Below, piece by piece: positions 2,907-51,229 of a DNA stretch of 64,000 nucleotides (position 1 is the first letter of the stretch; every line of letters starts with the position of its first letter). The position numbers were made by a program, and so were the translations under genes. The notes under the pieces were generated by a model that did not search any database, was not told the DNA's origin, and saw nothing but the letters and a program-made list of their open reading frames with translations. The stretch is taken from contig OZ210885.1 of assembly GCA_964658305.1 (NCBI GenBank), forward strand, positions 7,936,001-8,000,000. Direction: 5' to 3'. This DNA comes from Leptogorgia sarmentosa (taxonomy: Eukaryota).

Positions 2907-3288
2907 GCCAGAGTTTCCAGTCCATGCCTGCGATTTTTAGGGTCTGATACAAACCTTCTTTAATTTTAAAAACACATCTGATATCATATAGCATCAGAAA
3001 ATCAAAGTTATAGACTTATAGTTTATGCCAGTCAACCGAAATCTGCGTATTACATATACTGACACTTGCACGCTGATGATTTCCTCTTTGTTTTCTTCAT
3101 GAATTATTAATGCGTTTCACAAGTAGCTATATGTACCCATGTTTTGTAAAAATTGTATACATTCCTAATAATGAATACGCCGAGTCGAAACGTGGAACAA
3201 ACAATTCAAAAAATTTCTTGTGTTTTGATGTTTCTATTGTTTTGTATTTTTATATGCACAGTATGACTAGTAGCCTTGTGTACCATAC

Positions 3289-3398
3289 CTTTATCGAGGA
3301 CTTCGTCGAGAACCCGGAGATATTCCCATCCTTTGACAGCGACACGACATATTGATCATCAGCAGAGACTGCAACATCTTTTGCGCATTCAAGGTCAC
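3289..3398 (-). CDS. Gene A WD40 exon (not in ORF track)
   Basis: caatag|GTGACC; reads GDLECAKDVAVSADDQYVVSLSKDGNISGFSTKSSIK; donor AAG|gtatgg; entry phase matches the previous exon. Confidence 0.8.
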
Positions 3399-6300
3399 CT
3401 ATTGATCAGGAAGGAAAAAAAAACAATTCAGAAATTGAAGTAAACATTAAAAGGATATTTTCTGTAAGAGTCACAAATAGGTTGTGCATGATCAAGTTGG
3501 ACGCGTTATTAAAATTAATGTAAAAATCTTTGCAATTTAAGGATTTATATACAATGAAAAGAAAAATCTTGAGTAGTGGATTCACTTGATAGTAAGTTCT
3601 ACTCACCAACTGAACGATATAGGCAGTGAATTTGTTTTCTAACGTTTAGGTAGTAAGTAGAACTTTTGTCTACCAGAATTCGATATTGCCATTTTTTTAT
3701 CATAGAAGATATTTTCATCATCACAAATGGAGATGTATTTTTTACTTGTAAAAAAATGCACACATTGAGCTATCGCAAGCACCTCCATTCATATGACGTT
3801 GCATTGATAAATAACTTTGTAGCAATAAATTACGATGAACTACTAGACTACCATCCTTTATATATTTATAGGAATTGTGAGAAAGTACATTAGAATGTGA
3901 TACGATTTAGCGTATTGTGAAAGTTAAGATGCAAATTTAAATTGTAATGTAATATATAATATTGTTCCCACATGCTGGATCATTTGTCAATATTTTAAAT
4001 ATAGCTATATAAATTTCATAAAAAAATCTGGTTTGTATTTATTTCCAAAGAAGTTAATCAATGCAAAACACGATATAGGAATATTCGCGCCCTCTCACCC
4101 ATTTAGCCACACCAAAATTGTGCAAATTTACACTTATTTAGTGTCCGCTGAACACTTCGGAATTTATATTAGGAGTGTGATCGCATATTGAACCTTATTC
4201 TAATGGACTAGACCATAGACTATCAAAAGAATGGACTGGAAAGTGGAAACGCACGCTGAAACTGCACAACAACCGTGATACGCTTGATGTGGAACCCTGT
4301 AACTTCACATTAAATCTATTCCAGGACTTCGTATTGACATATTTCAAACCAGAAGAGAAATGAGTTTGCATCTATCCACTGTTCAAGGCAAAAAATCACC
4401 GTTGCAATAAGTGGTGAGAAATTTTATATCTTGATATTTTGCTTACGTTGTGTTTGTCATTGTTGTCTGTCAGTATCAAATATTCCGTATCTCTACAGTC
4501 TTCTTTATACTCCTGTAATAAACAAATAACTTCACAGTTGCTCGTTTGTACCGTTATTATTTACTCGTTAAGATCGCTAAGCTCACGATCGTATGAGCTA
4601 AGATCGTATTTAGCGATCCATCACAATTGGTAAATAAAAATTGTATACACTCACCCGTTAAACAAAGACCTCAACGGGTAGTACCCGATATTTCTCAATT
4701 GAGAACATGGGTAATGCCCACGCTGGACTATCGTCTAAGTAGCCTGACCAGGTAAGTTGTGAACAGTGATTGCCCGGGTCTATAATCATATGCATTTATC
4801 CAGGCCAGAGTGTTGAGCAGCGAGCTCGATTTAGCTCAAGTGGTAAGGCACGCGGTGCGTGCGTTGCAGTTCTATAGTTCAAACCCCAGTACGACACATT
4901 TTTTCAGCGTTGGTGATTAAAACTTTTTTTTCTCAATATTTTTATGACCACAATGGTCAGGGTTAGGATTCTAGGGTTTGGGTTGGGATTAAGGAAATTC
5001 TTAGTATATAGAAAAATGGTTTATATCTTACACTATATAACTATATCAAGAGTAATACTGAAACGCCGATCAGCAATCTTAGGCGATAGTCCAGCGTGGG
5101 CATTACCCGTGTTCTCAATTGAGAAATATTGGGTACTACCCGTTGAGGTCTTTGTTCAACGGCTGATACACTCGCCAACCGTGAAGTAGCAAATCTCTAT
5201 GTATCTCTTAGAGAGTCCCCAAATCTCATAAAACATTTCCCTTTCGTCAATGATGTAAATAGAGATGTGTACGATTTGTAAATAATAAAATTCGAACAAA
5301 CGAGCCAACTACGCATGAAGTAATTTGTTTATTATATGAATACAAGGAAGAGTGTAGAAATACGGAATATTTGATACACACAGACGACAATGACAAACAC
5401 AACACGAGCGAAACATCAAAATATAAAATATCTTAGTTTATTGTTTTGTTTTCAAGGAGGTTTATATCGTCATTCTGCATGAAACTAGTTGAAATTTTGT
5501 AATTACGATTGGTTATAAGAATTAGTTTTAGAATTTGGCCAAAGTAATTCTTTTCTTTACATGTAATTATCTTAGGCATACAAATCAAAAGGCAATTAAC
5601 GTAGGCCTAATTAATCTACGAAAGCCTGCTATCCATTCAACTGTATTTAACCACCGGTTTTCTGTCTTGATATCAGTGCAGAGCGTTGCAGATAAGAACG
5701 TTTCTCATTAACTATCCCGATTTGCTTATTATACACGAGTATCTACAAGATTTTAATTTCCAGGTAAATTTGTTCTACGTAAAAATAGTAGTTTTTGAAC
5801 ATATTGTGCAGTACTTGAAGCACAAAAATTAACAAGGTTGAGATTTAGTAAAATGAAAATGAATTTAGTGAAATGAAATGAAAACGAGATCGTCCGCAAC
5901 CTATTTATAAGAAAGCTAGCCCAAATAGACAATTTGAACTATACCTGTGACAGAAGAGCACTGTGTGTGAAGATTCCAAACTTTGAAAGTACCATCTGTA
6001 GATGTGGAAACCCATCTAGACTCATCACGAGACATTTTAATATCTGTGACGTCATTTGAATGATCAGAGAAACTGTTTTGTTCCATGTACGCAGCAGTTC
6101 CCAGGTTCCAAACCCTGATACTTCCATCCCTTGACGCTGTCAATACCTTCTTTGCATTGGGAATTATTGCAACACCGCTGAAATATTACAAGTTGATTGT
6201 TTATTTCTAATAATAATTTTTTCTACCGAAAAAAGGCAAAGACGATCTCTGTCAGACTATTGATTGTTTAACAAACCAATATTATCAAAATATGCTGTAT

Positions 6301-9300
6301 AATTTATTCACAAATGATCAGGGAAATATGTCGTATTCATCGAATGTTAGTGCAAATGAAAACTACATCTATGGTCACTTTATCTTTAGCAAAAATCGTT
6401 CTATTACAATGTCGACAACAATTAAGAAGATAGATAGATAAAACAATTAATTACGCAGGGTAGTCCCGTCAGTAATAAAAATTGCTGTTATCAATGGGAG
6501 CCCTATATAGACATATTGTGGAGTTCAGTACTGTTGATATCGACGAAAGCAACAATACAAGATAGAGTCATGATAGATGTACAACAGGTAAAATTATGTT
6601 GCATCTGATGTCAACAAAATCTTTCACCAATTAGTAATACTGCAAAATTCAATCGCAAAAGGTTGCAAAGTACGGAAAATACAGTCCTTTAAAGTTGACA
6701 AATTTGTATACTTTTTGTATTTGCGTGAATTTTATATAGTAGCTAATTTAATTATAATTTTCAGCGCCCGTGATACAAATGGATACCAATCTGCAACTTC
6801 GCACGGCTATATTTTCCGTATTTAGCATTTTCCGCATTCAACACCCACGAAGCGGGCGAGTGGGCCGGGCAGGCTACTGCACCCCGTCCCACCCCCTCCA
6901 ATAACTTGCCAGAATTCTGGTAACGATCTTTTTGGAAAATGAAATATATGAAGGAATCTAGACTTCAACAAGATTTAATAGGTCTCTCCCCAAACCCGCC
7001 TAGAGCGTAATCACTAATATGCATTTTCAAGCGCCCAATCGTGAGTTCTTTTTGATGGGCATTGTATTATCCAACATTTCACAACCAAACATTTAGTTTT
7101 TCTAATTTTGATAACGTCACAAAATGTCCTTCGTTTATCCCTCATTAAAATCTTTCTAAGGCGCAAGTCGTCCATTGCAAATAAGCTTAATGTATGTAGC
7201 ACGACTATAGCCGGGAGCCGCCAATTAGTATAATGGTGTAATAAATAGAAATTCTTATGACTGAAAATTAATTTCATGGAGTTCATGCTCGCTATCTTTT
7301 CAAGTAATCAAAAACCGATTTCAAGAAGCAGTACGTCTTAGTCTGACTGCGAAATATTGTATTAAATGTATACAATGGATAAGACAGAATATGGGGCGCC
7401 TTAAGCTTAATGTTATATATATTGGCTCTTCGTTGTTGCCTTGCCATATAACGATGCTTTCGAGAAAATAGCGGTAAATTAAATAGTTCCTAGAGTGAAC
7501 CCACCTGATCTCCATGGTATGACCTTCATAACAGGAAAGGGACTTTCCAGTGTGGAAATACAACAACCTCACACTTCCTTCATCGTCTCCAGAGATAATA
7601 TACTTTTTATCATCGCTCACAGCAATACTGATAACATGAAATTGATGGACGTAAAGGGTACGAATTTCCTGATACGTTTTTAAATCCCAAATTTTTATTG
7701 TCCAATCGTATGAACCAGACACAAGCATTGGATTGTTTTTTCCTGAATCTAAAAGAGAAACTTCGCACTTTAGTCGAACTAGCACAAAAAAAAACAAGGG
7801 AAAGCAAAGTACATGATATCCTAAATATATTCAATAACTCGATCGTTGACAGGAGAGATTTTCATACAATGCACTCTGCAAGTCCAGGCAATGGATTTTG
7901 CAGTAGTCCATATACAGAAAGTTGATTTTGTTAATACCGTTAGGATATTGAAGACAAATTGACGCAAAAAAGTAATTCCAGTGTGTCAGGATAAGCTTGA
8001 AATACTCAAAATATGGCCGGTTCGGCTGGCACGTACAATAGTCATGATCATGAATGAATTGTGCAAAGTATATTGGGTAATCAGTTGAAATATGCACACA
8101 AGCAAATTGTCTCAAATATTTTTAAAAAGCTAGCATAGATATATCTAATAGCCATTTTAAAATACTCTTAGCATATACGAATACAACCAGAGCCTAAAAA
8201 TTGGAAAGAAATCAGAAAGTCCTAAAATAGTGCTTGTACATGAAAGCACTGGCTACCACCATACTAACAATTAAGGAAAGACTTTGCTTTCTTTCTAGGC
8301 ATAATTTTTAATTACAATATTAGAATGCTGTAGCATGCAAGTATTTTTGTGCAGTAATTGGGAAAATTTATTCCAAGACATGATATTCCCCTCCAATCCT
8401 TGCTTTATTGAACAATTGTGTTTTTAAAGGAAGTTTATAATAAAGAATATGTTTTACCCGAAAGAAACAGCACAAATATAATTTTGAAGAGACTCTATTG
8501 AAGTAAGATCTTCAAAATGTTATGAAATATTAACTCATACAGTATTGCATACCTGTTGCGACAACACATGTCACCCAACGTGTATGGCCAACCAAACTGG
8601 CCTCAAAATTTAGTGTATCGGCTTTCCACAACTTGATAGCCTCGTCTTCAAATCCAACAGTAGCAATGAACTGTCCATCTTTGGTCGTACACAGCGACCA
8701 GACTACCTCAGGAATACTTGTTGAGAGGTTTTCTCCGGTAGATACACAATACACTTTCAGCCCTACAACGCATGATGGATACTCGTCAGACTGATGTTTC
8801 AATAATGTCTAACCCTAGACGATTTTGTGAAATCTTGTTTTTAATTGTGTCCCTCTCCGGCGCTGAACATGCTCTGGCTGTTGCTGGCTTATGTTTTTAC
8901 ACTGCGTTTCACGGCGCTCTACACGACGTTAACAGTTAACCGCTGGTTTGAAGATACGCAGTCGCTGGAATCCTCAAACCAGCTGTTGCAATTATTGTTT
9001 GAATATGAACAATTTCTACTTTTGGCGAAGATTGAGAGGTGCTTCTCAAACAGACGTATCTGGTTTTCCCAGGAAATCATTTTACTACAGCTGCGTTGAA
9101 AACTGCTTATCCTGGCATCAAACACAAAACGAATTAGTGAATATGGTCCAATCACACGATACCATGCCGTTTGTAAATTTCATAAACACACCCTCCACCA
9201 TGGCTACATTGTTGTCAAATTGTGTGCATTGTACAGGGCATCCATACCAGTGGTACTGTTGGTAAAACTTGGCTACAGATCGTGAAATTTACAACCGTGA

Positions 9301-12300: not shown

Positions 12301-15300
12301 TGTACGTGGCTGAGGTCCGTTTATTGCTTTTCCAATTAGAATTTCATTCGCAGAACTATTCGAAGGCTCCGAATAGTTCTCTTCTGATCTCAGATTGTTG
12401 ATTGTACTTCACAATTCACGATATATAGCATACAGGCATGGGGTTTTAAGATTACCAAAAACATTTTTTTAAACATGATAAAAAGTGGGTGGGGACAACT
12501 TGATATTCGTCCGCCCACCCCCACCCCCCCCCCCCCAGGATTGACGCCCTTGGTAGCTAGCTGAAACAATTTTGTTGGCTTTTAAATTGTGCTTGGATGT
12601 TGACAGTATATTAATTGTTATAAATATTACAGTCAAACTTTTACTGTTGTCATTGTTTCTGCTTTATAGGAACTTATTTCAGTGTGCTTCTTTTTAACGA
12701 ACTTTTTTGCCTTTTGGGTATAATTGAAGCAGAAGAGATGTTAATTAAATGGCTATAATATGTTCGATATGAAATACCAGAATTAAAATGCATATCATAT
12801 GCAGAATTCAGGAGAATATTTCGTAGAGTTAGCATAGTAAAAATGTGAAGCTAAGAGGTATAATTAAGAGGCCATCCACAACAGTTCAACCGAGGGCCGA
12901 CACTGGAGATTTACGCCGCTGAATTTGCAACGTAAAACAAACATTTTGTAATCGTACTTTCAAGTATTTTTATTTGAAGAAAATATAATTATTTTAATTT
13001 AATTAATAAAAGTATTCTAATATTCAATTTGGTACCGGCGGGGTAACATATTTCCGAAAGTATCATCATTTGCGGAGTTATTTGACAAACATAATATGAA
13101 AAGGATTTAATTTTTTCTCCAATGGCATCGTTGCTGGCGTTCCTTCAGAACCGTTAAATCCGTACACGTAGGCAAAATCTTATTTCTTATCGAAACTCGC
13201 GCACTTTAATACTAACCTTTAAGCAGAGCGGAAGTCGAGAAAACGTTTATGGAAATTTTCGTTTACCTATTCTGAACAACATTTTGATATCATTGTTTGA
13301 CTTTTGTTTAAGATGCTTACCATGGTATGTTCCAATAAACACTCGCTGATCATCTGCACTGAAATCCAGAGCATTAACTAAAATATCCCCTTGGAACACA
13401 AAAAGCTGTTCATAATTCTCCATTCTCCAAAGGATTGTACTTCCGTCCCACGACCCCGACGCTAGTATTGTTCCACTTTGTGACACAGCCACACAACTAA
13501 CTCTCTTAGAATGTCCCAGTAGTTGTTGAACTTCTCTACCTGTTTATAAAATAAGATAGTACGTACATAAAAGGTGTAATAGGTAATTTTCACTCACATC
13601 GTTACTACATTGGGAGTATTTTTCAAAACATTGCGGCGATAAAATAAATGATTGAGATAAGTAAGTACATTAACTAACCCATCAGCTACACTCTGTTTAC
13701 ACCGCTAACTTCCATTTATACTATTACGTCCCTATAGCAACTTAAACAGCAATGTAAGCGATAGACAAACACCGAAACGATCTTTAATACTAAAAACAAA
13801 ATAACTGTAATTTTGCGGAATTCACTGTGGCGTGTTTTACAGGCGTGTGTTTTCATTCGTTACTTCTTGGGATTTCATAAAAGTATGCCCTCATTTTGTT
13901 GTGCAAGTCCATAGATATAGGTATCGAGCCAACTTGAACGCTTGGGTAAGACTCGCCACCAGTCTCGGTTAACTTTGGCTCGATAACTAAAGTGGTAGAG
14001 TAACGGTCAAGTAACCTATACACGTTGTCTGTTGCTGTTTTGATGTAACAAATTCGATGTTTTATTAAATCGTAAATTTCACCAACCACATACTATACAA
14101 ATATGGGTTTAATTGTAAAACATCCACATGCACATATGGCTGTTTTCCAAAGCCGAACAGTTTACTGAAATTTATAATATATTTACTACTGTTTAGATAA
14201 AATTTAGTGGCTGACCGGTGTTGCTGGTAGAACAGAAAGTAGATAATTGGAAAGCATGCATGAGGCCATAAACAGGAAATGTTCAATACAGTGAATACCA
14301 ATGATTGCACAGGAATGTTGTCCTACTTGTATTTGTAATTACTGAAATTTCACATTTTAAAATTGGTAGACATCATTTATGCACACGATTTCTTAATAAT
14401 TGTATGTTTTATTGTTTAGAAGAAATAATATGTCACTCTGCCCGAATTGATTTTTATACTTTGATTAATATGTTGCAGACACAAGCATTCCCTCCAGCCA
14501 TTTGTGAGATTTTTTTATTTTTTACCCAGTAAACATTGATCCTGTTCAAGAAATGACTGAATTAATTTTTATCCCAGCGTAAATCTGGATGAACATGTCT
14601 CTTCAAGTATCTAATCCAAATTTCAAATATCATCATATGGCGACGACTACCGAACATGATTGGCTAATTTTCTAGTGAATTCACTTTGAGTGTAAACCTT
14701 TGTTCCCTCACCCATATCAACTGCATATTAACTATATTCTCATTTCAATGAATAACCAAGGTCAAAGCTTTTGTTTAGCTACAAAGGCATGTATGAATAT
14801 GTTTAATATATAGTCATAATATATACGCTATAATTCAATTTGTCTTCTTCTAAAACTGAAACTTTTTTCAAAAACCGGGGCAGTGGGCTACAGGTCATAA
14901 AAATTTGGATAATTATCCGTGTAACGAAATGAGATTCGGATGGCGTAATATTAGTAATACTTACTTATTTGCGCGAAATATGACGTGTGTATACAGTGGT
15001 TTATTTTACACTGCACCAATATAGTTTTTTTGTAATTTTATCAAACTGTAGCTATTACAAGATTTTTCTGTCATTCTTAATAGAAAGACAACTGCATTGT
15101 GGATAAGTTCAAAAATGGTGTCATAGCAATTTTGTAGCAGAGGATTAGGGACCTTAAGATCTACAACGTGACCAACTCGACGACGAGCTTTTCGAACAAA
15201 CAAATTTTTATGCTGAACAAAAACCAAGTATAAATTGTGGTATCAACGGCTTTTTTGTTATCAACGCAACATAAGCTAAGCATTATAACGTCTTCAAAGC

Positions 15301-18300
15301 AACGTGAAGATTGATTACAACGTGAGAGCTGTAACTTCAAGTTGACAACACAGCAACGGTCGCATTGCTTTAATTGAACCTGTGTAGCTGTTTCTTGAAA
15401 AAATTCCAACATCTATTTAAAGCATAAAAAGGTCAGCACTCATTTTCAAGCTGAAATTTAGACCCCCAGCCGTTGAACAAAGACCTCAACGGGTAGTACC
15501 CAATATTTCTCAATTGAGAACACGGGTAATGCCCACGCTGGACTATCGCCTAAGCTTGCTGGTCGGCGTTTCAGTATTACTCTTGATATGGTTATATTAG
15601 TGTTAGATATAAACCATTTTTCTATATATTAAGAATTTCCTTAATCCCAACCCAAACCCTAGAATCCTAACCCTGACCATCGTGGTCAGATAAATATTGA
15701 GGAAAAAAAAGTTTTCATCACTAACGCTAAAAAATGTTTTCGAACTGGGGCTTGAACTATAGAACTGTAACGTACGCACCGCGCGCCTTGCCACTTGAGC
15801 TACATCGAGCTCGCTGCTCACCACTCTGGCCTGGCTAAATGCATATGATTATAGACCCGGGCAATTACTGTTCATAATTTACCAGGCCAGGCTATTTAGA
15901 CGATAGTCCAGCGTGGGCATTACCCATGTTCTCAATTGAGAAATATCGGGTACTACCCGTTGAGGTCTTTGTTTAACGGGTGAGACCCCGTCGTCGAGTT
16001 TGTGGCGTTTTAGATCTTAAGGTCCCTACTATCAATTATTGGACGACGTCGCACGAAATACCGCGAGTTATCGTTGGCGAGCGGATCAATTATTTGACGA
16101 TTCCGAGAAGCAGGTAAGTAATCTGAGAACAACCGATATATAACTGAAGCAAAGCATAGCCACATTACCTAGAGTGATGCGAAGCATAATAGGACGAGCC
16201 CTGAGGCCAGTGGCCAGTGAGCTCCATGAGATTATAGCGCCGTGAAATTTCCGATGTAATCAACTACTGCACATGTGACAGCAGGTAAGTCAAACATGTA
16301 CTTTATTAAACATTTTTATCTATATTTAGTTCATTATCAGCGCTAACAAAAAGAATTGAAGCTGAAGGCTAGTACAACGTTTCTTGACAAGGGGTGATTT
16401 TGCACTGCAAAGTTTTGTTAATTAATAACGTCACCCGAGTGGCTTTGCGAAATTGAGAGCGATTTCAAATTTGCTCAGTTTTTTATACACGTATATATCG
16501 CGCAGCCGCTCAACTTGCATAACTCAGAACTGATAATTCTTTCAAATGTGAGTGAGGATATGGTTGCAGAGGCGGCATTGAATCTGTGTTTTAGTTTTCC
16601 AGACCGACGATCGGTCAAAAAAAAAACTATTGAAAACCCCGAACCTCGCCATTAGTTTATCCATAGTACGTTACCACATGGTTACCTACCTGTGTCAAGA
16701 TCAAAGATTGTGATTGAACCATTCCCTAAACCACAAATGACAAGGGTAGCGGATGAGGTATTGGACGTCGCTAATGACCATACTTCTAAATCAAACGTTT
16801 TTCGAAAGATCTCTGGGCCTCCAAGATCTAAACATGAGAATTCCGGTATAAGACGGCAAGTCTCCGTGCATGTTGCACGGAGTTGCTCTAATAGCGTCTT
16901 TATCCCCGGAAACTCTTCATAAGATAGCAGTCTGCCTGGAAAAGAAAAATACACAGCAGTATTAGCGCACGTAACAAATTCAGAAAATTTAAAATAGCGT
17001 TTAAAGATGAAGACAAATATTGACCAGGAAAATATTAAAACTGAACAACTAACGGGCCTATCTGATTATACTATATATATCTGTTTCTTGATTATTAAAA
17101 CAATAGGTTCATCATATGAGTTCTTTTCTTATTTCTAAAGGAAGTTTTTCATTATTTTAACAAAATGTTCGTTCCCCTTCAGTGACATTCATATAAAGGG
17201 GACATAAAGTAATATCAAAGTTTGAAACTGTTTTGTTTTGTTTGGGGGGGTGTAAATCATAATGTAGACCGATTCGATCTGGGGGCATGCCCCCCCGGGA
17301 AAATTTTGAAATTTTGGTCTCGGAAATGGCATTTCCAGCGTTTTGAGAGCATGTTATCTGTTAGAAGGAAGGTGTTAGAACGCCTGTCCGCACAACACCA
17401 TTAGAGACCTTAAGATTACACGACGGCGACTTCAACGGCAACAGCAACGTTGAATGAGCTGGGCCGAATTTGAGGGTAGCGAATGTCACGAGGCGCCACC
17501 ATGGTTGGCGCCGAGGGAGAAATTTTTGAACTTTTACAACCGCTGGATTGCCGGAAACGACGATTTCAGAGTTCTAACTCCACTTTTTTGGTACGCTCGT
17601 TCAGGTGAACGACTGGAGGATTGTTGACATTACCTTATTCCTCAGATTTTTGCCCGAATTATGCCCAAAATCAGTGCCCGAATTTTCCAATTTGAAATTA
17701 CTGCAAAGTCAGCAAAAACTAGTTCACCCGTTACTTCCGGTTGGTGTTGCCGTCACAGTTTTCTCGCAATCTTAAAGTCCCAAATGACGCCTGTCCGCAT
17801 AACACCATTCGTAAACTGCATAATCACTTTACTTTTTATAATTTATTGTTATGAATGCAGCCGGTCTCGAGATAATATGTCGGTCTTCGCTCAGCAACGC
17901 ATTTAATCCTTCTATTGCGTAATTTTGTATTTTGAGACCTGTTGTACGTATTTTGAGACCGACTGGCCAGTGACTTTGGGGGGGTGGACCACCCCCCCAC
18001 ACACTCCCATATTTACGCCCCTGGGTATCAATTCTGTGTGCGTAATACAAAAATATACCAATTTTGAAAACTTCACAGGGGTATATTTCTCGCATTTTAC
18101 ATCATTTCGCAACCAAACTCTGCAATTGTACTAACTTTGGAATGCTCTTTAACGCTGTTATTTTGAATTGTATATTATTTCGAGGTTTTTGAAAATTTTC
18201 TCTATTATGTAAGCGGTCAATTCACGCCCTTTTTACAATGCCAGAAAGCATAAAACATCGCTTCGCAAAACAAAAGTAGAAAGACTGTTAAAGTTCTGTG

Positions 18301-21300
18301 AATTCGCAAAGCACCGATCTCATGCTTAACACCAAAAAATACTTTATTCCAATACAACAGAACGTTACTTCCTACAGTTTTGTAAATTCTTAATATTATT
18401 GATTATTTAATGTCTAACTGAATTTGATTCCAATCTCCAATAATATATGGTGTGGGTGAATGACAGTGACTGTTAAAATCGACCAATCGCATGCATACTT
18501 TGTGTGAATCATGGGCGTGTATTACCCACGGAGACGCATCATATGTAAGAACCGCGTATATATACGAACTAGCTGGTTAACAACAGAGAATCTTTGTTTT
18601 CGGATAGCATGCCTAATGGAGTATTTATAAAGATAGGTATAACATTCATGAAGTAATACTTCGCGTTATATAGTGTGGTAACGACCCAAAACAATTGCCA
18701 TTCATCTACATGCAAGCGTACTTGGGCAGTGGTGGTAGCCGTTTCGACGTATCGAGCAAAGACCCTTAGTCGTTAATTAGTAGTTGGGTCGGGGGAAAAC
18801 ACAAGGGTTTTTATATTAGTGAATATAATGGAAACCAAGTAAAAAGCAATCGGAAGGATTTGATACACCAGCTTTCAAAAGCCTTTTGTAGAAATGTGGA
18901 ATCTTATTATATCGTATTATTTAGGTAGTGAAACAAAATTTAGCAAAAAAAAATAAAGTAATTACCTAACAGCTGTGGACCAATAGAATGCAAATTCTTC
19001 TCGATAACCGTCGAAGACAGCATCAACGACGTCTTGAGCAGTTCGATTTCTTTCGAGGGAGGGTCCAGAAAACGAAAATCTGATATTAAGGAGGGGAGAT
19101 CGAATTGATTCACCTTTTCATAAAGCCAGTTAAAATTGAAGAACAGTTTATGTAGTTCATCAAATTGCTCGGAGGAATGGAGGTGATAGGTCAGGTACTT
19201 GAAATAATAATCCTTGTTGCCTTCAAATTTTCCCCAATCTCCGTTCTCGGAATGACCACGAAGTGCCTCCACGAACAAACACTGGACAGAACTTAGTTTG
19301 CCTCCCAGTTTTGCACGTGCAAAACCCAAAAGGAGATCGTGGAGACGGTAGGTCTTCTTTCCATGTAAATCAGATCCTGAAAATTAGCGTCATAAGGCGA
19401 ATTTCAATTATTAAGTGTAAAATTTTGGTTCGTGATCGCTTTCTTTTGAAATGCTTGCAATTTAATGTTAATGAGAATCGTTGACTGTTTGTATTTCAAA
19501 ATAAAGCGTTCGCTAAAAGTCGATCGCGCGCCATTTCGCACTGAATTAAATTCTGCCGTTAGAGAACATAGTCACATATGGTGATTCGAAACGTTTTTGT
19601 ACAGGACACTAGAGCAGTCTGGGACTGCAGTCAGGCTATAGTACAGTAATTTTTCAGATTTAGTATACTCCAGGGCGATGGAAGTATTTTCCATTCAATT
19701 CCATTCGTTACTCATCTAGCAATGCCAGAGGAAAACACGGAAAATATTGGGCAAATGAACGGGCAAATTTGGCTTGCCCACATATGAGTCAACATATGAT
19801 TAAAGCTGAAAATTAATTTCCTTAGGCTTGTTTGCAATTGACGTTGGTTTGATTAAATGTTCAGCCTAACAACGTGTTGACAGTTAATATACAGCTTTCG
19901 CAAAAGGAGCTGTAGTTAAAAAATATTTCAGAAACTTCTCGTCGTAAGCGTGAATTTCATTTCATTATGGTGCATGAAGCAACAGACAAATTTAGCGATC
20001 GCAAAAGTTTAAAAATAAGACAACAAGCACAAAACTAACATCATAGTTGGAAACAGCGTGCTGAAATTAGTATGAAAGCAAAGTTTGAAGAATAGAAATG
20101 ATAAAATGGGGAAATTGTGCCCATGCAAATTTAGCACAATTTACATACTATTTATGACGCAGAAGTAAGTTAATACACATTATCGTCTGAAATGGATATA
20201 ATTTACTTTGTGCTGATAAAATAGTACACAAAATGAATGTGTCTGGCAATGATATTCCCATTTTATGACATTTCTTCTTTAAACTTTGCAATTATGGTAA
20301 TTTTTGCACGCTGTTTCCAACTGTGGCGATAGATTTTTGTCTATTATCATGTACCCTGTCTTCATTTACCTTGTTGAATCATCGACTTCTTTTCGAGCTC
20401 ATCAAGTATACGTCTTCCTTCACGACGGCTGCACGAAGTTCTTCCGGCTACTTTGGAAGACCAAAACAGCTCAAGAATGTCTAATGGTACATCCGTATCT
20501 TCTGGAAATAAAGCGAAATCTAGAAACTTTTCTCGTATTTCTTCGTCCAAATGTTGAAAGCTGGCGTTAATGGCTGTTAAGACGTTATCGTAAGGATAAG
20601 CTTCGGCGGGATATATTGAACGTAATTTTACCAAGTCTGCTTTTTTGAGGTCATTTAAAACGTCTTCCCAGTCTTGTTCGTCGCGAGTGTCGGCTAAACT
20701 TGAACCCACAAGGGACAGAGCTAGCGGTAGATCGCCACAATGGTTTAACATTTCCTCTATAATTCGCCGCATGTTTGAGCTAAACTCGGACTGCTCGTCC
20801 TCGGTGACTTGGGCGCTTTGATACAAGAGCTTGTAAGATCCAGTCCGTTTTAAAAAATTGAGTTTATACAAAGCAGAACCTCGTAAACCGCGAACAACTT
20901 CAGAATTCCTTGTAGTTATTAATAATTGGCAATTTCCAGAGAGATGATCAAATACAGAAGCGTGGTTTACACTCCAAACATCATCAAGAATCACCAAGCA
21001 ATCTTTGTCACTCTGCAATACATAGAAAACTGCTTTATATACTGTCGCTGTGCTGGTGCTTTTCGAGTTTCTTGGGTAAAATTAACTGGGTCGAAGCAGA
21101 AGCAACGTTGCCACTGCTTCAGAATTATCAATAGATGGGTAGCCAAATCGATAATTGGAGAAGGCACATTCATATATCCGCGTTTACAAAGTTCAAAGAC
21201 ACTAGATTTCGAAAAAGTCATTAAGAATACGATTATACATGAATATGATCCCCGCGCATTATCGGGCTATGTATGGTACTGATTAAAAGGGCGACCCTCA

Positions 21301-24300
21301 CCTAGTGTATCCTCGTCTTTGTCATAGGCATACTGTAAGTGGTGAAAAGCTTACATGTGTGTTCGTTACTTTGCAACGAAAAAACCTGATATCCATCTCA
21401 TCACGCTAATCACTTTCTCGGTTTTCCTCTTATGGCGGAATCAGTGGGAGTTTACATAACGCGCTATTTGCATCACCAGTAACGTAACAATGATTTTGTG
21501 TAATAACGCATCATGAGTATTACAAAAAGTTAAAATAATACACACATACCGTGTTTGCTGTGACCCAGGATTGCGCTGCCCGGATGTCAGTGAACGAGGC
21601 TTCGCCACCAAGAACTTTTATGAGCAGGTTAATGAGTGATAAGCAGTCAGGAGTTTCCCCAACATCAAGCCATATTACCTGACGAGATTCTTTGGCAGAC
21701 CAAGCGACAGCCAGAGCTAAGATGGTCTTACCCAGACCCCCCATACCACGGATACCAACGACGTCACCGCTACGATTCCCGACCACACCAACTCGATTAT
21801 TTCCTTCTGTTAATAGTTTCAATATGTCGTTCACTTCTGACGGTCTTTCCACCATGTCACGAGGTAGACTGCGTAATCCATACGCAACTACAATATAAAA
21901 TAAACGGAATATGCTGGATGAATACAACTAAACAGGGATGGATCTACAATTCCCGTGCAAAATGAGACTTTAGCTACTTCAAACATTTTTCTCATATTCA
22001 CACATGAATTTATCCAGATCTTCTTCAATTTGTTTTAATATTTCCCCCCTTCCCCGTTAACAATTCTGCCTGGATCTTTTTGAGCAAACCAGATGGCGTG
22101 AGATCGTTGTTACAAGATTGTTTCAGGGGGAAATGGGGGACAAGTAGTTAGTCTGAACAATTTTTGTTTATTGATGTAGTTATCCGTTATACCTAAACTG
22201 TAGCCAGATGTTGAAGCATGTTATCATGAATTTATTAAACTTGTTGTCACAAACTATTCCAGAGGGGGAGAAGAAATATGAACTGCACGGTCCGCAGGGT
22301 TTGCCCGTAGAAAGTAGCCATTGAATATAGAATAAAATACTTGCATGCTACAAAGATATAGATGGAAATTAACATAAGAGTGCAATAGAATAAAACGTAA
22401 GATACAATTACGCTCTTCCTGTTCTATTAACCTTTCGCAGATTGGAACTTGTACAAAAAAATCTTGTACAACACTTATCCGGAACTATACACAACAACAT
22501 TCGATCCCGATTTACCCTGTACTTATTAATATATTCTTTAGATAGGACGTCTACTTGTCATTCCTAATTTTATCTATTTAAATGCTTGTATAAAAATATT
22601 ATAATAGTTACCCTAGTAGTTTGTATATTTTTAGTCAGGCTGACACCGTGCATTGGATCCAGTCCCGTTCTCGTGTATTTAGTATGTTTGTTACTGAATT
22701 AAAGTCAATATCATAAATCAAAATGACAATAAGGCACTTATGGACATAAATCAAAAGATGAAGCATTTAACCACTATCAGCAACGTTTAGGCATTCTTGT
22801 CGCAATTGAGCTGCGTCAACGTTTCACGAGTGTTTTTTATTTGGTTGTGACCTACGCAGTTAACCCGCCCAACATTAAAATTCATTTTTAGTGATGATGA
22901 GTGCGACAGCGCGTACTGCACTGCCAATGCTTTCGGATTCCCACTAAATCTGGGAAGTGTTAGAAGACATGTTGCATTCCTGTTGCCGTTTACTCTAACG
23001 AGATATTTTCCTACAAGAAATTCTTAGAAACAGAACGTTAAAGACCGGCAAGGTTCGTGGGGCACATAAATTTTGAAAATTGAATGGCTGCCTGATACTC
23101 TGCAAATTTTCCTGCATATCATATTCTGCATAAATAGTTTCCCATCTTTCCTAGTTAATTGAAACACCACCTTTTTTATCTGCAAAATCTGAATGCTCCG
23201 TCCTCGGCTTTTTCTGACGACATTCGATTTCATCTGTTTTCTCCGCCAGACGTTTAAGCTCCCTTGAATGATGTTCAAATTTCTCAGCTGCAGACCTTTC
23301 AATCTCTTTCATTTTGGATTGTATGTTATCGAGTTTCTCCATCACTGGATTTATCTGAATAGATAAAATTGATTTAGTAAATTCAATTTACGGGCTGAAA
23401 CAAATTTGAAATCACTCTCAACTTCACAAAGCGGGTTAAGGTGTGTGATGTAATAATAGTTATAATCTAACGTTATTAGTATAGGTAATTGTATGGTTTC
23501 GAGTGCAATTTGGAAATAACATGCACGAGCGAGTTTTTCTAGGACATTCTCGTTTTGTTCGACCGCTAATATACGAAATTGTTTCCAGGGCCGGATTAAC
23601 ATCGCGCGGGGCCTGTGGCAGATGTTCAGCGCGAGGCCTCTCACACATATTTGTTGAATTATATTTGTCTGGGCATATCACAGCATTACCGCAATTTCTG
23701 GGTTGTAGGAACGTTTTGGAATTTGGGCGCGCCGAGTTTCACGAGACGCCACCATGGTTGGCGTGGAGCGAGAAAATTTTGAGAATGTAGAGCCTCTAGA
23801 TCGCCGGAAACGGCCATTTCAGAGAGTTGTTTCACCGCGAAGGCCACAAAATAATTTTTAATACGCGAACAGTGAGTATTAAATTAAGTTTAAATGCGCG
23901 ACGTACAAGGGCCCCAAATTGACACGCAAACCAGGGAGCCCCAAATTGACACGCAAACCAGGGCCCCCAAATTGACACGCAAACCAGGGGGCCCCAAATT
24001 GACACGCAAACCAGGGGGCCCCAAATTGACAAGAAAACCACGGGGTCCCAAGTTGATGTGCAAACGGAGGGCCCCAAATTAAATTGTTATGCGAAACACG
24101 GCAGGAATCGACATACTTGGGGGGCAAATACGCAAATCACGAAGGGCCCCAAATTTGAACCACAAACCACAATGGGCGTATCATTTTCCAGAAAAGGGCG
24201 TGGCCTATCGAAGAGCGGGGCCCCTGTAAGCGCGGGGCCCGCGGCATATGCCGCATGCCATCTGCCACGTGGGTAATCCGGGACTGGTTGTTTCGCTTGT

Positions 24301-27300
24301 CCACCGAGCACTTGCTTGAACGAAGAGAAATCTCTGTCTCGTATTATAAAAAAGTTGTCATCATCGACTGCTGTTAATATCACTTTTAAGCTGTCAGCTT
24401 CATATTCATCGCCGTTTCTTTTTTTAATTCGTAGTTTTCGTTCAGCATAAAAACAATCGAGCAAAATATCTAATCTAACACCTCTTGCGGAATATTTTGT
24501 ATCTCGCGCTGTATTTCCTTTTCAATGCGCCATTTTCTCCGCACAATCAACCAAAAGACTAGATATCTTTGGTGGTATTTTCATTTTTCGAACTATTTTT
24601 AAGCCCCTCTATCATTTGTCTGTTCCTAAAAGAATCTACCCAAAGAGGCAGCCATTTTTTCATCCTCGAATAATTTCATATTTTGTTATTGTTCGCCAGA
24701 AATGGCTTAATCTGATTGGCTAGCTTTGTAATCTCAGCCAATCAGAAGGCATAAACATCTGAAGAAATTTGCACTAAATTTCTTTTTTTTGCACTGAATT
24801 TCCTTTTTGCCACTGTATTTCCTTAATATTGCACTGCTCTTAGCAATTCAGAATCGTGAAATTTTTTCATGTATATTATTAGATTAGAGATTAAGATGAG
24901 TATGTAAATTAATGAGACAATATATATGAGGCAAGGACAGAGTTCGTGGTTGTGTGGACGACAAGACAAGTAAAGAGGGCAGGGTCACAAGGATTCGAGA
25001 AGAATTAGTTGGAATTGAAAGCGTGTATCGAGGTGACTGAAAACAATCTTAGGCGAGAAGAGTAAAGTAAAATTGTTAGTTCCTGAATGAAAAAAAAGGT
25101 GACGAAGCGTAACTAGCGTGGCCTGCGTGGGGTGAACTAAGTTCCAACACTGAAAAGAATCAACTACGGTCTGATATCCTGAACTTTAAAGACAGTCGTT
25201 CTATACTTGGAGTGCTTTGGCAAACTGAAAATAAAACTCTTAGTCGATAAACGATAGAGTTATATCCACCTCTCGCCCAGCAACGCCGAGAAACCGAAGC
25301 CAGTCGCTTATACAGTTAATTCCCAAAATTTAATTCCCAAAATTCCTAAATAGAATTACTGAAGGAAAACTTGAAGGCAATTACCGAGCAAGTCCAGAAT
25401 CCTCGGGACAGAAACTACGCATTGTGGCTAGCTGAAGACAGATGACGGAAACTCTGTGGACTTGTTTTGTTTGAACTGCGACGCAAAATTGCTTCGCTGA
25501 TCTTTTACGGGATACCCACATGTGAGTTGTGCGTACCTATTATTTCCTCTCTTATAAATTGGCCCTTTTTTCTCAAAATTTTCGAATTGCAATCGAATAA
25601 TTTTTACGTCCTGTGAGGACGAAATATTTCAATGCTTGGTCGACACAGATGTAAAGTCGAATACGAGCTAAAATTTTTGTGACGACATTATACATAAGGT
25701 CTATTGAAATTTGATATGCAAGTTTCCTAGTTTGTTAACTTTTCAGAAATTTGTAGTTCAACGTTTGAACCTCAATAGCAATTTTGCAAGCAAAATAATT
25801 GTTATCTATCAAAATTTAGGTTTATCTCTTGCCTATGAGAATGGCTAAATTGTTTTGCTTAATGGGATGTCCCAGCCCCTTGGGGTAGTTTTTTCCCCCT
25901 GAAACAGTATTTTATTTATCAGTAATTGATATGTAGTGTGTTTTATTTATCAGTACACGCTTCGTTCTAAGTATTCTATTGCAAACGTGTCCCCAAAAAG
26001 TATGCACATGTTTGACTTGTAACGTTTAACGGGTAAAGCAAAACTCATAAAAACAGCATTATCGAAAAAAAGCACAGATTGCGTTCCCACGCTGAAAATT
26101 TGCACTCGCTCGCATTTGAAACATGTCTTATATTAATTTGAACAGCGTCTTCCTACTTATTCAACGACTGTTAAATGAAACATCAAAAGTTCCTCAAACC
26201 TTTGTGGCGTCCAAATCGTAGTTTTTGATACAACGGCAAAGTTCAGCTACACTTTCTGCAATTAGTTTTGCGTGACGACCGTCAACAAGAATGTCTGGAA
26301 ATAATGAAGAAAATTTATCTTGAGTATCACAAACACTATAAATATATCGCTGCTAATGCGCGTAGCACGAAGGATACATGGAAAAGCATGCCTTTCTGTC
26401 CATACAAACTATTTGATAAGCATGGTCTGTCGTCGTTATTAGCAAACTTCAATATGCGGCCAGAGTAGTGGATAGGGGATAACAACATCAGCAAGCAGCA
26501 CATGTCATACCCACTACCTAAACAATGCAAATAGGTTGGACGTTTTGAGTAAAGTAGATTTTTTGCATGATAGACATACAAAAATTTCAAAATCGTACAA
26601 TCCAGAGCAACAGCGTTAAAGAGTATCACAAAGTTAGTAAAACTGTAAAGTCTGGTTGAGAAATGTTTTAAAATGCGAAAAATATGACCCTGTAAAGTTT
26701 TCAAATTTTGTATATTTTAGTATTACCCATGCATTTATATCCTTATCGAGAAAAGTCTATCAATTTTGCGTGCCTAATGCTAAAATGAAAAAATTGGCAA
26801 AATTGTGTTAAACATTCCCGACTTTTGAATGATTGAAGTTTTGAACACAAATGTCCAACTGGAATTAGTACGATTTACGATGTCTAATTCATGTGAAAAT
26901 TTTGATTTTATGCATATGTCAGCATATATTAGTTGTACTACACTGTATATCATGTTGTTTACAGTATTAAAGGCATTTAACTTCTGCACTTATATGAAGG
27001 TCTAAAAATAAATCACTGTCACCAATTCAACACTAGATTTCTATGTAAAGTTTCAAAGTATAGCTACACTATTGGAGAATTTAATTTTTTTTATCTGTTC
27101 GACCCCATATAATTTCTACGATTGATCGTATTGAGAATCGCATTGAATTGTATATATGGTAATATATGAATAAAATTGGATGATAATAATAATAATAAAT
27201 GAATAATAAGAGAAATTCTTTCAACACATGGGGGTTTTCTTACCGGAGATAAAAAATGATCTGCGCAAAACATATTTAAAGGCATGATGAAATTCCGGCA

Positions 27301-27914
27301 ATAATGCTAATAATACAGTACCTGTTTTATTCCAGAAATCTAGTTCATCACAAATTATTTTTTCGTCAGCTATTGGTAAATTTAACATTTTGACCAAAGA
27401 TTCCAATGCTTGGAACGAGTCATTGAACATATGTAGTGTCCATTCAGAGATGTTACAATGAGCCCATGGGTTTCTGATGTCCGACCGAACTCTGTTTGCT
27501 TCAGCTGCAGCGCCAGAAGATACAAAAGGAGCTGCCTTGCCGATAATAGTCAAAAGTGCTGACATATCCATGGTTTCATCAAATCCAGTGAAATGTGCCA
27601 TAAAGTCCGTGACGAATAGTTTCGCCAACGAGACAGGATCTTTAACAGCATAATCATAAGCTGCTTTAGTACGCTTGTGGATAATGTTATTGTTAATGTT
27701 TTGATATTGTAGGTTATGGGTGGAAGGGGGTAATTTCTTAATTTTGTATGCTGCGAAATCTTGCTTGTGAATTTCATCAGGTGGTTGGCATAAAGAATGA
27801 TACCATTTCCCAAGTTCAGTGTCGACAACTTTCCTCAATGCAGGTGCAAGAACTTTGGTAAAGGCAATGCCAACTAAAACCCAATGTTGTTCTTCCTCTG
27901 ATATCATTATCGTT
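3289..27914 (-). CDS. Gene A (whole span): spliced HEPN - coiled coil - NB-ARC - helical - WD40 protein (APAF1-like STAND NTPase), 3' end unresolved
   Basis: 12 exons with AG/GT boundaries and matching intron phases: 27914-27322, 26294-26200, 23354-23171, 21887-21550, 21012-20370, 19376-18966, 16935-16690, 13539-13321, 8762-8553, 7748-7505, 6177-5945, 3398-3289. From ATG 27907 these join to 3519 nt (1173 codons) without a stop. The first 7 exons are mirrored in paralog B. Confidence 0.88.
4421..5429. mobile_element. Old foldback/MITE with diverged arms of about 130 bp, interrupted by a younger MITE
   Basis: 4421-4548 is an imperfect reverse complement of 5297-5429. Confidence 0.65.
4652..5165. 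mobile_element. MITE (514 bp), TIR about 85 bp, 7-bp TSD ATACACT
   Basis: Termini CACCCGTTAAACAAAGACC...GGTCTTTGTTCAACGGCTG; second copy at 15467-15982 in the opposite orientation. Confidence 0.9.
5945..6177 (-). CDS. Gene A WD40 exon
   Basis: tttcag|C GGT GTT (phase 2 fits the previous exon); reads VLTASRDGSIRVWNL...WVSTSTDGTFKVWNL; donor G|gtatag. Confidence 0.88.
7505..7748 (-). CDS. Gene A WD40 exon
   Basis: DSGKNNPMLVSGSYDWTIKIWDLKT...IISGDDEGSVRL...YEGHTMEI; ttttag acceptor and AG|gtgggt donor (phase 2). Confidence 0.88.
8553..8762 (-). CDS. Gene A WD40 exon
   Basis: GLKVYC...VWSLCTTKDGQFIATVGFEDEAIKLWKADT...LVGHTRWVTCVVAT; ttgtag acceptor and G|gtatgc donor. Confidence 0.88.
10021..11182. 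mobile_element. hAT-type non-autonomous element, 8-bp TSD GGTGTTGG
   Basis: CAGGGCCGTAG...CTACGGCCCTG termini with a perfect 8-bp duplication. Confidence 0.88.
10254..10680. mobile_element. Nested hAT-type MITE
   Basis: CAGGGGCGTAGC...GCTAAGCCACTG termini; flanks ATAACAAT/ATGACAAT (7/8 match). Confidence 0.75.
11487..12921. mobile_element. Older hAT-like element (TSD not preserved)
   Basis: CAGTGGCGTAA...TTACGCCGCTG termini; hosts the element at 11644-12552. Confidence 0.55.
11644..12552. mobile_element. Nested hAT-type element, 8-bp TSD GTAGCTAG
   Basis: CAAGGGCGTCAATCC...GGATTGACGCCCTTG perfect TIR and TSD. Confidence 0.88.
13321..13539 (-). CDS. Gene A WD40 exon
   Basis: GREVQQLLGHSKRVSCVAVSQSGTILASGSWDGSTILW...; aaacag acceptor and G|gtaagc donor. 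Confidence 0.9.
15148..16026. mobile_element. PIF/Harbinger-like MITE hosting a nested MITE
   Basis: GGGACCTTAAGATCTA...TAGATCTTAAGGTCCC TIR with TA-containing flanks; related termini at about 17404-17781. Confidence 0.7.
15467..15982. mobile_element. MITE (516 bp), 7-bp TSD AGACCCC, same family as 4652-5165
   Basis: CAGCCGTTGAAC...GTTTAACGGGTG termini; full-length inverted match to 4652-5165. Confidence 0.9.
16690..16935 (-). CDS. Gene A exon: helical domain end and first WD40 repeat
   Basis: ttccag|GCAGACTG; reads GRLLSYEEFPGIKTLL...VWSLATS...GSITIFDLDT; donor G|gtaggt. Confidence 0.88.
18966..19376 (-). CDS. Gene A exon: MHD-equivalent (LHD) and APAF-1-type helical domain
   Basis: tttcag|GATCTGAT; reads GSDLHGKKTYRLHDLLLGFA...YYFKYLTYHLHSS...FNWLYEKV...LISDF...GPQLL; donor G|gtaatt. 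Confidence 0.9.
20370..21012 (-). CDS. Gene A NB-ARC exon 2 (Walker B, sensor I, GLPL-like, winged helix)
   Basis: CLVILDDVW, LLITTR, CGDLPLALSLVG, FLDFALFPED; ttgcag acceptor and G|gtaaat donor. Confidence 0.93.
21550..21887 (-). CDS. Gene A NB-ARC exon 1 (Walker A)
   Basis: VVGIRGMGGLGKTILA P-loop; ttgtag acceptor and ACG|gtatgt donor. Confidence 0.92.
23171..23354 (-). CDS. Gene A short coiled-coil exon
   Basis: attcag|ATAAATCCAGTG; reads INPVMEKLDNIQSKMKEIERSAAEKFEHHSRELKRLAEK...DKK; donor G|gtggtg; homologous to the B exon at 53410-54442. Confidence 0.78.
23474..24880 (-). mobile_element. Degenerate Crypton/DUF3504-like (tyrosine recombinase-derived) element
   Basis: The minus strand at about 24290-24464 reads LDCFYAE...KKRNGDEYEADSLKVILTAV...IIRDRDFSSFKQVL, resembling the FY.E.RK..G.EY.P.SL motif of Crypton/ZMYM/KCTD1-type proteins. 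Interrupted by a MITE; boundaries approximate. Confidence 0.55.
23586..24286. mobile_element. hAT-type MITE with internal tandem repeats of about 30 bp
   Basis: CAGGGCCGGATTA...TAATCCGGGACTG termini; flanks ATTGTTTC/GTTGTTTC; GGGCCCCAAATTGACACGCAAACCAG repeated at about 23908-24075. Confidence 0.8.
26200..26294 (-). CDS. Gene A small linker exon (DILVDGRHAKLIAESVAELCRCIKNYDLDATK)
   Basis: Not in the ORF track. Polypyrimidine ttccag acceptor and AAG|gtttga donor; phase 1 to 0 bridges the flanking exons; the paralog copy differs by an in-frame 3-nt indel. Confidence 0.8.
27322..27914 (-). CDS. Gene A exon: N-terminal HEPN-like (DZIP3/hRUL138-type) domain
   Basis: ttcatag|AACGATAATG acceptor; reads MISEEEQHWVLVGIAFTKVLAPALR...RSDIRNPWAHCN...FWNKT; donor G|gtactg. 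R-x4-H motif present; all-helical character. Confidence 0.82.
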
Positions 27915-29189
27915 CTATGAAGTAAACATAAAATAATGGTGTTACAATTTTAGCTACCAAAGCACAAAGCTTTTGTAAACAGTACAGACATAATTACTTT
28001 TTGACATTTTAATGTTTTACAAATATGTGAAAGTAGAAGTTTCTTTGAAAAGACTGGTATGTCCTTTGAAAATACTGTATGAGTAACCCAGTTTTGAAAA
28101 ATCAGACAAGCCAGATTTATTCAATTTGTAAGGCGAGTGGAAAGTATTGACCACCTAACGCTGTCTGCAAATATTCGGCTTCGTTGCTTCGCAGTGTGTT
28201 CCGTATTTCGAGCATATTATGGATAGTTGTAAACTGACGACGATCAAATATATTTCTTTCGTTATTTGTGTCATTCAAGCTGTGCCACTCTAAATAATAT
28301 AATAATCGCTTTAAAGTCACTTAGATCATAGACAAATCAGTGGCGTAACCGAGGGGTGTCAGGGTGTCCAGTGACAGGGGGGCCCACGAACGTTAGGGCC
28401 CCCCGACAAAATGAACATAAAAAATTGATAGCACATTTCTGGGGAATTCAAATACGAAAAACAGACAGATAGGTAGGTGCGGGTGGAGTTGCCTATTAAT
28501 TGGGACTTATGGTGTATCCTTTACCTGTTCGTTGGAAGAGAGAAGCGAAATTCATTAAATTCAAATTCGGGTTCGAGTCTATTCTGTAACAAAGTGAGGT
28601 TTGCCGTTGTGACAATCGTCTATGCTCAGATTTAAGTAAGACATTGTATTTTTTACACATAATGTCCATCCGGAAATATGCATATGTATATCTATACATA
28701 GCCTACAGATATAGGGAATAATGAATTTATTAATAAACGTCGCACCTTCGCAACTACAGTGCGGCGGTTAATCGAGGATAAAAGAGAACTCACGCAGGGA
28801 CGTTTTTAACAACACGGTTGTCAAGGTGACGATGATGTGACGGAAATTGATATTCTATTCTGAACAGTTTTTGTTCATTCGTTAGGTTGTTAGGCAATAA
28901 AAATTACGAGCATTTACGGTACCTCCATGCTATCAGTCAAATATTTTTAATCTTCCAATAATTAAAAATGAAAGTTTTATGTTATGAGATGTATCCATGA
29001 CCTTTTACTGATAGAAATGTTGCTGAAGATATAATATAGTTTTTAATGAAATTTGTAAACAAAATTGCGCGAGGGTACACACTACCAGTATTGAAGTTTG
29101 CTTTCCTATGAATTTAAAGGCCTCGTCGAAATCCAATCATAATTAAGAGCAGGAAATTTGCGATACAGACTGTAAGTTGTCAAATTACA

Positions 29190-50618: not shown

Positions 50619-51229
50619 ATCGGCACATTCTCTACCGAGTAGCAGCGAAAAGATATCGGAGGAAGAACAACATTGGGTTTTAGTTGGCATTGCCTTTACC
50701 AAAGTTCTTGCACCTGCATTGAGGAAAGTTGTCGCCACTGAACTTGGGAAATGGTATCATTCTTTATGCCAACCACCTGATGAAATTCAAAAGCAAGATT
50801 TTACAAAGCACAAGAAGAAATTACCTCCTTCCAAACAGAGGCTGGAGTACAGGAACATCAACAACAACCGTATCCATAACCGAGCTTCCGCCTATGATTA
50901 TGCTGTTAAAGATCCTCTGTCGCTGGCGAAACTATTCCTCAAGGAGTTTATGGCACATTGCACTGGATTTGACGAGACCATGGATATGTCAGCACTTTTA
51001 ACTATTATGGGTGAGGCAGCTCCTTTTGTATCTTCTGGCGCTGCAGCTGAAGCAAAGAAAATACGGTCGGACATCAGAAACCCATGGGCTCATTGTAACA
51101 TCTCTGAATGGACAGTACATATGTTTAATGCCTCGTTTCAAGGAATGGAATCTTTGGTCAAATTGGTTAATTTACCAACAGCTGACAAAACAAAAATTTG
51201 TGATGAACTAGATTTCTGGAATAAAACAG
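50619..51229 (+). CDS. Gene B exon: HEPN-like domain
   Basis: tgatag|ATCGGCA; reads ...KISEEEQHWVLVGIAFTKVLAPALR...RSDIRNPWAHCN...FWNKT; donor G|gtactg. Confidence 0.82.

Follow-up and report, generated by a model that had tools for sequence, protein, structure and literature searches.

The stretch of DNA analysed here, the window, comprises 64,000 nucleotides of Leptogorgia sarmentosa (GenBank assembly GCA_964658305.1, contig OZ210885.1, positions 7,936,001 to 8,000,000), and is AT-rich, intron-rich and animal. On its minus strand lies gene A, which is predicted to encode an APAF1-type receptor with a HEPN-like domain, a candidate RNase, at its N-terminus, and an inverted paralog, gene B, lies on the plus strand. 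Gene A was modelled as 12 exons running from an ATG at 27907 to 3289, with phase-consistent joins giving 1173 aa and no stop. GT is present at all donors and AG at all internal acceptors, and 27914 and 3289 are exact splice points, with an AG acceptor before 27914 and a GT donor after 3289. The product contains, in order, a 195-aa all-helical domain, a helical linker, NB-ARC, the APAF1 helical domain and WD40 repeats, encoded as follows.

27322..27907, minus strand: exon 1 (exon start 27914, ATG 27907), entire HEPN-like domain, aa 1-195, phase-1 donor at its end
27458..27475, minus strand: RNPWAH motif, R145-N146-x3-H150, kept in 141/152 and 116/119 relatives
26200..26294, minus strand: exon 2, helical linker, aa 196-227, tblastn with P0001 at 62%
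23171..23354, minus strand: exon 3, predicted coiled coil, aa 228-288, joint 21887/23171 in X4 and X5
21550..21887, minus strand: exon 4, NB-ARC with Walker A, from Pfam and motifs
20370..21012, minus strand: exon 5, NB-ARC Walker B, sensor-1, GxP and winged helix
18966..19376, minus strand: exon 6, LHD motif and APAF1 helical domain (APAF1_C, E 2.4e-11)
16690..16935, minus strand: exon 7, end of the helical domain and first WD40 blade, loose end 16686 matching exon 8
13321..13539, minus strand: exon 8, WD40, loose end 13320 matching exon 9
8553..8762, minus strand: exon 9, WD40
7505..7748, minus strand: exon 10, WD40, joint 6177/7505 in X5
5945..6177, minus strand: exon 11, WD40, joint 3396/5943 in X4 and X5
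3289..3398, minus strand: exon 12, WD40, donor at its end

No 5' exon could be located ahead of 27914, and X4/X5 contigs depart from the window sequence at 27915 into sequence without placement. At the other end, exon 12 closes on a donor, four longer relatives extend about 510-540 aa more, and no further exon of gene A was found in 1-3288, so gene A is probably either cut short or continued outside the window. Since its introns reach 4.6 kb, a next exon beyond the window edge is plausible.

Five sequencing runs cover the stretch, none of them recorded as RNA. Contigs of X4 and X5 were enriched on exons, and showed at least 3 joints with CT..AC ends, corresponding to GT-AG introns (21887/23171, 6177/7505 and 3396/5943), together with loose contig ends resembling the next exon at 16686, 13320, 8553 and 7750. 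Joints 2-3, 4-5, 5-6 and 6-7 of gene A were absent among the matches listed for these contigs. At 27322 another contig end is loose; judged by eye, it is about 70% like exon 2, so it stems from a paralog. The exon 10-11 joint occurs with several differing letter sets, which points to more paralogs or alleles. Two relatives carry domain, linker, NB-ARC and WD40 in a single open reading frame: P0001 (1205 aa, contig of 4084 nt) and P0008 (1709 aa, contig of 5604 nt), with 71% and 57% identity, respectively, to the HEPN-like domain of gene A; their contigs barely exceed the length of the reading frame. The spliced HEPN-to-NB-ARC product proposed in an earlier reading of the sequence alone (the sequence-only reading) is thus upheld by a stop-free 12-exon model and by the same architecture in two uninterrupted frames. 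As judged from these gene models, the HEPN/NB-ARC fusion is real.

Six-frame translation of the window revealed RSDIRNPWAHCN twice, at 27487 (-) and at 51064 (+), each followed by a GMGGLGKT Walker A motif. The HEPN-type pair in gene A is R145/H150 (RNPWAH, 27475-27458), and R141 is an additional conserved basic residue. R145 and H150 are kept together in 141/152 rows spanning the motif, and R and H in 116/119 closer relatives, in which N146, D114 and S116 never vary; the R/H motif, first noted in this one protein, proved to be conserved in its family. Retention of R and H and invariance of N146 fit the HEPN consensus R[D/N/H]xxxH (10.64898/2026.05.28.728550). In an AlphaFold2 model (predicted local distance difference test score 97), the domain is all-helical and RNPWAH closes the helix 133-149.

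In a Pfam profile scan of 63 aligned rows (62 relatives and the window domain), 30 matched HEPN_Swt1 and 21 matched DUF4559 (E<=0.1), the latter being the CXorf38 motif (PMC4554924). Four relatives that are 45-54% identical to the domain matched DUF4559 positions ~1-187 with E ~1e-5 and 24-26 bits, against a cut-off of 27 bits, which P0152 exceeds (29.4 bits). The closest ESM Atlas clusters scored 0.97, with HEPN_DZIP3 or DUF4559 on 11% of their members. We strongly infer a HEPN identity for the gene A domain, which by these profile matches is closest to the DUF4559/CXorf38 and Swt1-like HEPN group. A CXorf38-type zinc ribbon (PMC3710099 Table 1) is absent from it: its only cysteines are 3 (40, 151, 186), with no CxxC pair. 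The sequence-only reading had pointed to DZIP3-type HEPN fusions, and its assignment of the domain to the HEPNs stands through the HEPN_Swt1 and DUF4559 links. A tie to DZIP3 does not: PF18738, the DZIP3/hRUL138-like HEPN, was matched by 5/63 rows and never by the window protein, the sole strong match being a separate second domain of P0019 (248-308) and the other four having E 0.02-0.04.

P0019 thus pairs a gene A-type domain with a DZIP3-type HEPN in tandem. P0020 contains two copies of the domain, one with a degenerate motif, and in P0127 the domain is joined to a kinase and an RNase L-type nuclease.

The remainder of gene A is of APAF1 type. Pfam NB-ARC was matched across exons 4-5 (E 1.8e-18) and APAF1_C in exon 6 (E 2.4e-11), and Walker A GMGGLGKT (336), Walker B LVILDDVW (407), sensor-1 TTR, GDLPLAL, GxP and LHD (627) are all intact, in agreement with the intact NB-ARC and helical domain first described. 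In P0001, APAF1 structures match residues 392-778; exon 5 alone matches plant ADR1 (2e-13) a little above APAF1 (1e-11). A self-built repeat hidden Markov model detected 7 WD40 repeats in gene A, and alignment to the relative P0167 gave 9, so that the original count of at least 9 holds by alignment and not by the repeat model; further blades beyond these 7 to 9, towards the two propellers of APAF1, were not found in the window. No CARD or death fold is evident, as had been claimed. Exon 1 has no Pfam death-fold match, although gene A may have a coding exon upstream of it, and when five DED, DEATH and TIR sequences of relatives, with no CARD among them, were used as tblastn queries, nothing in the window scored under E 0.78. 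P0001 and P0008 begin <=10 aa from the HEPN domain.

A search with the STAND part of P0001 gave 68 proteins. Those nearest to gene A are 53-65% identical and, where named, from octocorals, Dendronephthya and Xenia included. They carry DED (P0167, P0168 and P0169, and P0166 by likeness) or paired DEATH domains (P0170, and P0171 by likeness), and 2/68 carry the HEPN (P0001 and P0008). In all of these relatives the N-terminal domains switch just before (Y/F/H)GL(R/Q)xLP, and gene A has a phase-1 intron at this point, after exon 3. The sequence-only reading had the HEPN standing in for a CARD. The nearest NB-ARC relatives bear DED or DEATH at this same junction, so that it is these, rather than a CARD, whose place the HEPN takes; on the aligned sequences, HEPN is an alternative to DED/DEATH among them. 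A careful tree of 17 rows placed the four HEPN rows together (87/82) inside the DED/DEATH clade (97/97), and a quick 39-row tree concurred. No CARD-bearing animal APAF1 was labelled as such among the 68 hits, and the trees are therefore without it. The next-best relatives (P0176-P0183 and below) are largely bacterial APAF1-like NB-ARC-WD40 proteins, cyanobacteria included, at <=33% identity, and fall on a separate side of the tree. Exon shuffling at the phase-1 intron likely put the HEPN exon in place of an ancestral DED pair, probably in this direction.

Among 50 long relatives, the domain is joined to NB-ARC-WD40 (P0001, P0008), NB-ARC-TPR, NACHT-LRR, nSTAND3-ankyrin, AIG1, Roc-COR (ROCO), a DEATH domain and, once, a kinase plus an RNase L-type nuclease. 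Being joined to several unrelated immune NTPases, it behaves like a swappable effector. Genes A and B each encode the entire domain in a single exon with a phase-1 end, and the 119 close relatives, most of them short calls in one frame, end a median of 12 residues past it, which together suggest a one-exon module.

Gene B (50560-62935, plus strand) is an intact paralog lying head-to-head with gene A at a distance of about 22.7 kb. Self-comparison of the window showed an inverted duplication: 26094-27908 is 84% identical to 52456-50649, and identity is 83-92% across the NB-ARC and helical-domain exons. Flanking non-coding sequence is also present in inverted copies (28133-29252 and 30505-30641 versus 46159-48270). 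Seven exons of gene B lie within the window and encode 1115 aa without a stop, the gene running off the right end.

50653..51229, plus strand: HEPN exon, RSDIRNPWAHCN present, 82% identical to gene A
52253..52350, plus strand: exon 2
53410..54442, plus strand: exon 3, linker expanded to 344 aa, heptad-type repeats
55327-55664, 56600-57242 and 58442-58852, plus strand: exons 4-6, NB-ARC and APAF1 helical domain, all motifs intact
62690..62935, plus strand: exon 7, gene continuing past the window

No ATG precedes the HEPN in the HEPN exon of gene B (50610-50660). This plus-strand stretch matches the Met-initiated start of P0001 but begins after an AG, so the start of gene B must lie in a further exon or be damaged. 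The predicted coiled-coil linker exon encodes 61 aa in gene A versus 344 aa in gene B, where its repeats measure 42, 63 and 105 nt, each a multiple of seven codons. In this exon (53410-54442, plus strand), 39 heptad-type units were counted, and the expansion in P0001 is intermediate. Between genes A and B, the ratio of nonsynonymous to synonymous divergence (dN/dS) was 0.38 over the 192 codons of the HEPN and 0.28 over the 546 codons of the STAND part, and dS was uneven among segments, from 0.05 to 0.99.

The window also contains several repeats and candidate mobile elements. A 163-aa frame at 2448-2936 (-) had no Pfam match; we take it to resemble the restriction-like endonuclease end at the C-terminus of a non-long-terminal-repeat retrotransposon (RPDL motif). 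Broken frames at 60232-61785 (+), within a gene B intron, likewise had no Pfam match, and one carries RQRGSPHIHGLFW, presumably a Helitron Rep-like motif. Two 520-bp elements (4650-5165 and 15467-15984) are 94% identical, have ~90-bp terminal inverted repeats and resemble miniature inverted-repeat transposable elements. Between genes A and B are direct duplications of 821 bp (38639-39453 / 41021-41811, 90%) and 514 bp (30505-31017 / 32180-32689, 95%).

In STAND proteins such as APAF1, binding of a ligand to the repeat sensor opens the ADP-bound NTPase, and the resulting oligomer clusters the N-terminal effector. In PMC13581612 the same activation scheme is described for Avs7, and the switching on of fused enzymes by STAND oligomerisation is established for bacterial Avs. 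HEPN catalysis requires two juxtaposed motifs (10.64898/2026.05.28.728550). By analogy, gene A would most simply be read as an RNase that is gated by a ligand and halts or kills the cell with no need of a caspase. Binding of a ligand to the WD40 propeller would release the ADP-locked NB-ARC, and a predicted NB-ARC ring would pair the HEPN domains via the helical linker. The paired RNxxxH motifs would likely cut RNA, leading to arrest or death of the cell with no caspase involved, and gene A would likely respond to infection by such direct RNA cutting. RNase activity, oligomer-driven activation, ligand and outcome are what we infer for gene A. We favour, at somewhat better than an even chance, an intact HEPN-like/linker/NB-ARC/WD40 protein, likely an intracellular immune receptor of the octocoral, in which a ligand-driven ring would pair the HEPNs for predicted RNA cleavage.

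A wider proposal is more tentative, and falls a little short of an even chance. It describes an "RNase-osome", in which an exon swap at one intron rewired the apoptosome scaffold from caspase recruitment to ligand-gated RNA cleavage, the variable heptad linker (61-344 residues) would set the pairing of HEPNs above the ring, and the large Pfam-missed HEPN subfamily would be a common effector of STAND, AIG1 and ROCO receptors in corals and molluscs.

Some results weigh against a HEPN effector derived from DED. Exon 1 of gene A has no Pfam match of its own, and fold searches gave no significant match of the domain to a solved HEPN; by themselves, the fold searches do not prove a HEPN. In addition, the approximately unbiased test did not reject a single DED/DEATH clade (p 0.089).

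The strongest competitor, which we consider unlikely, is a HEPN that mainly binds RNA or dimerises, making gene A a sensor or modulator in mixed rings with caspase-recruiting DED/DEATH paralogs. The sister proteins, at 53-65% identity in the STAND part, are close enough for mixed rings to be conceivable; inactive members are known among the Swt1-type HEPNs, and for CXorf38 activity is a prediction (PMC3710099; 10.64898/2026.05.28.728550). However, inactive HEPNs are ones that lost the motif (PMC3710099), >90% of relatives retain R, N and H on many different carrier proteins, and the DED paralogs are known from relatives' proteins, not from this genome. It is less probable still, and we would be surprised, that the WD40 part delivers a non-lethal RNase to viral or transposon RNA, with no ring necessary. 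Such RNA has been proposed as an animal HEPN target (PMC3710099 and PMC9646362), but the fully intact NB-ARC switch motifs fit regulated assembly, and the gene A protein is without an RNA-binding domain.

We give little credence to gene A being a truncated or decaying recent duplicate without useful function. The lack of an exon after 3289 where four relatives extend ~510-540 aa, the HEPN exon of gene B without an ATG, and the mosaic-like spread of dS (0.05-0.99) would suit a dead copy, but the two copies hold 1173 and 1115 codons without a stop or frameshift, dN/dS is <0.4 in both main parts, spliced contigs reach through exon 12, and introns of up to 4.6 kb could carry the next exon past the window edge. 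Least probable of all is an unrelated helical adaptor with a coincidental RNxxxH, which would suit the lack of a significant fold match or direct Pfam match but neither the recurrence of HEPN_Swt1, DUF4559, HEPN_DZIP3 and DUF4145 among relatives over the motif half or the whole domain, nor the enzyme-like conservation of polar R, N, H and D.

The novelty that the sequence-only reading implied for such a system proved to be lower. For cnidarians, fusions of CXorf38- and DZIP3-type HEPNs with NACHT and DEATH are already on record, with RNase L-like or antiviral action proposed (Anantharaman 2013, PMC3710099), so that defensive HEPN-STAND RNases in animals date as a proposal from 2013. In several cnidarians, NACHT is joined more often to DZIP3-HEPN than to any other partner, D. 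gigantea having 83 copies (PMC8260672), and >50 are reported from pearl oyster (PMC9646362); oyster HEPN-WD40 architectures are reported (PMC8195603); and a coral genome paper lists HEPN-NACHT-WD40, in its supplement, and HEPN-NB-ARC-TPR proteins (PMC10236652). In file 6 of the latter, DZIP3-like_HEPN with NACHT and WD40 occurs in 18 of the first 29 WD40 rows of 200, one also with NB-ARC; 7/7 APAF-1 rows have other N-termini, CARD/DEATH (5) or DUF4062 (2), and WD40 occurs in 0/23 DUF4559 rows listed, of 27. Our literature search, which covered few subscription journals, found neither a HEPN on an APAF1-type NB-ARC/WD40 protein, which supplements may nevertheless list, nor an experiment on the activity of any HEPN-STAND fusion from an animal. 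The class was thus previously predicted, and an APAF1-type member with a Pfam-invisible HEPN is apparently unreported. As most of the subfamily scores below cut-offs, HEPN effectors are undercounted when coral receptors are surveyed with Pfam. Many HEPN-STAND genes of invertebrates are presumed to encode self-contained immune receptors with RNase activity, and gene A suits a first test: its APAF1-type NTPase is well understood, LHD can be mutated, and the DED/DEATH sisters are natural effector-swap controls. If the favoured reading is true, animals possess single-protein suicide RNases of the Avs kind, built on an apoptosome frame.

RNase L and Ire1, with a KEN-type HEPN, are animal HEPN RNases activated by ligand-induced dimerisation. 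Unlike gene A, they have a kinase-like scaffold and a C-terminal RNase, and no STAND or WD40. CARD-bearing APAF1 shares with gene A the intact NB-ARC motifs and helical domain, whereas gene A lacks an evident N-terminal CARD. The animal HEPN-STAND fusions (PMC3710099, PMC10236652, PMC8260672, PMC9646362) resemble gene A in having an N-terminal Rx4H HEPN on a STAND NTPase with C-terminal repeats, and also show lineage-specific expansion and a proposed RNase-based defence; in contrast to them, the gene A NTPase is an APAF1-type NB-ARC with APAF1_C, and its domain is missed by Pfam and without the CXorf38 zinc ribbon. Avs and bacterial Apaf-1 orthologues, among which a fused protease is described (PMC13581612), differ in that gene A is animal and intron-rich, with a predicted RNase as effector, and in that the bacterial APAF1-like hits are <=33% identical in the STAND part. 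The invertebrate APAF1/CED-4 paralogs in which DED, DEATH or TIR replaces CARD (Zmasek 2007, PMC2246300) share with gene A the NB-ARC, helical domain, WD40 sensor and exchanged N-terminus, but the N-termini listed for them are all protein-interaction adaptors, whereas that of gene A is a predicted enzyme.
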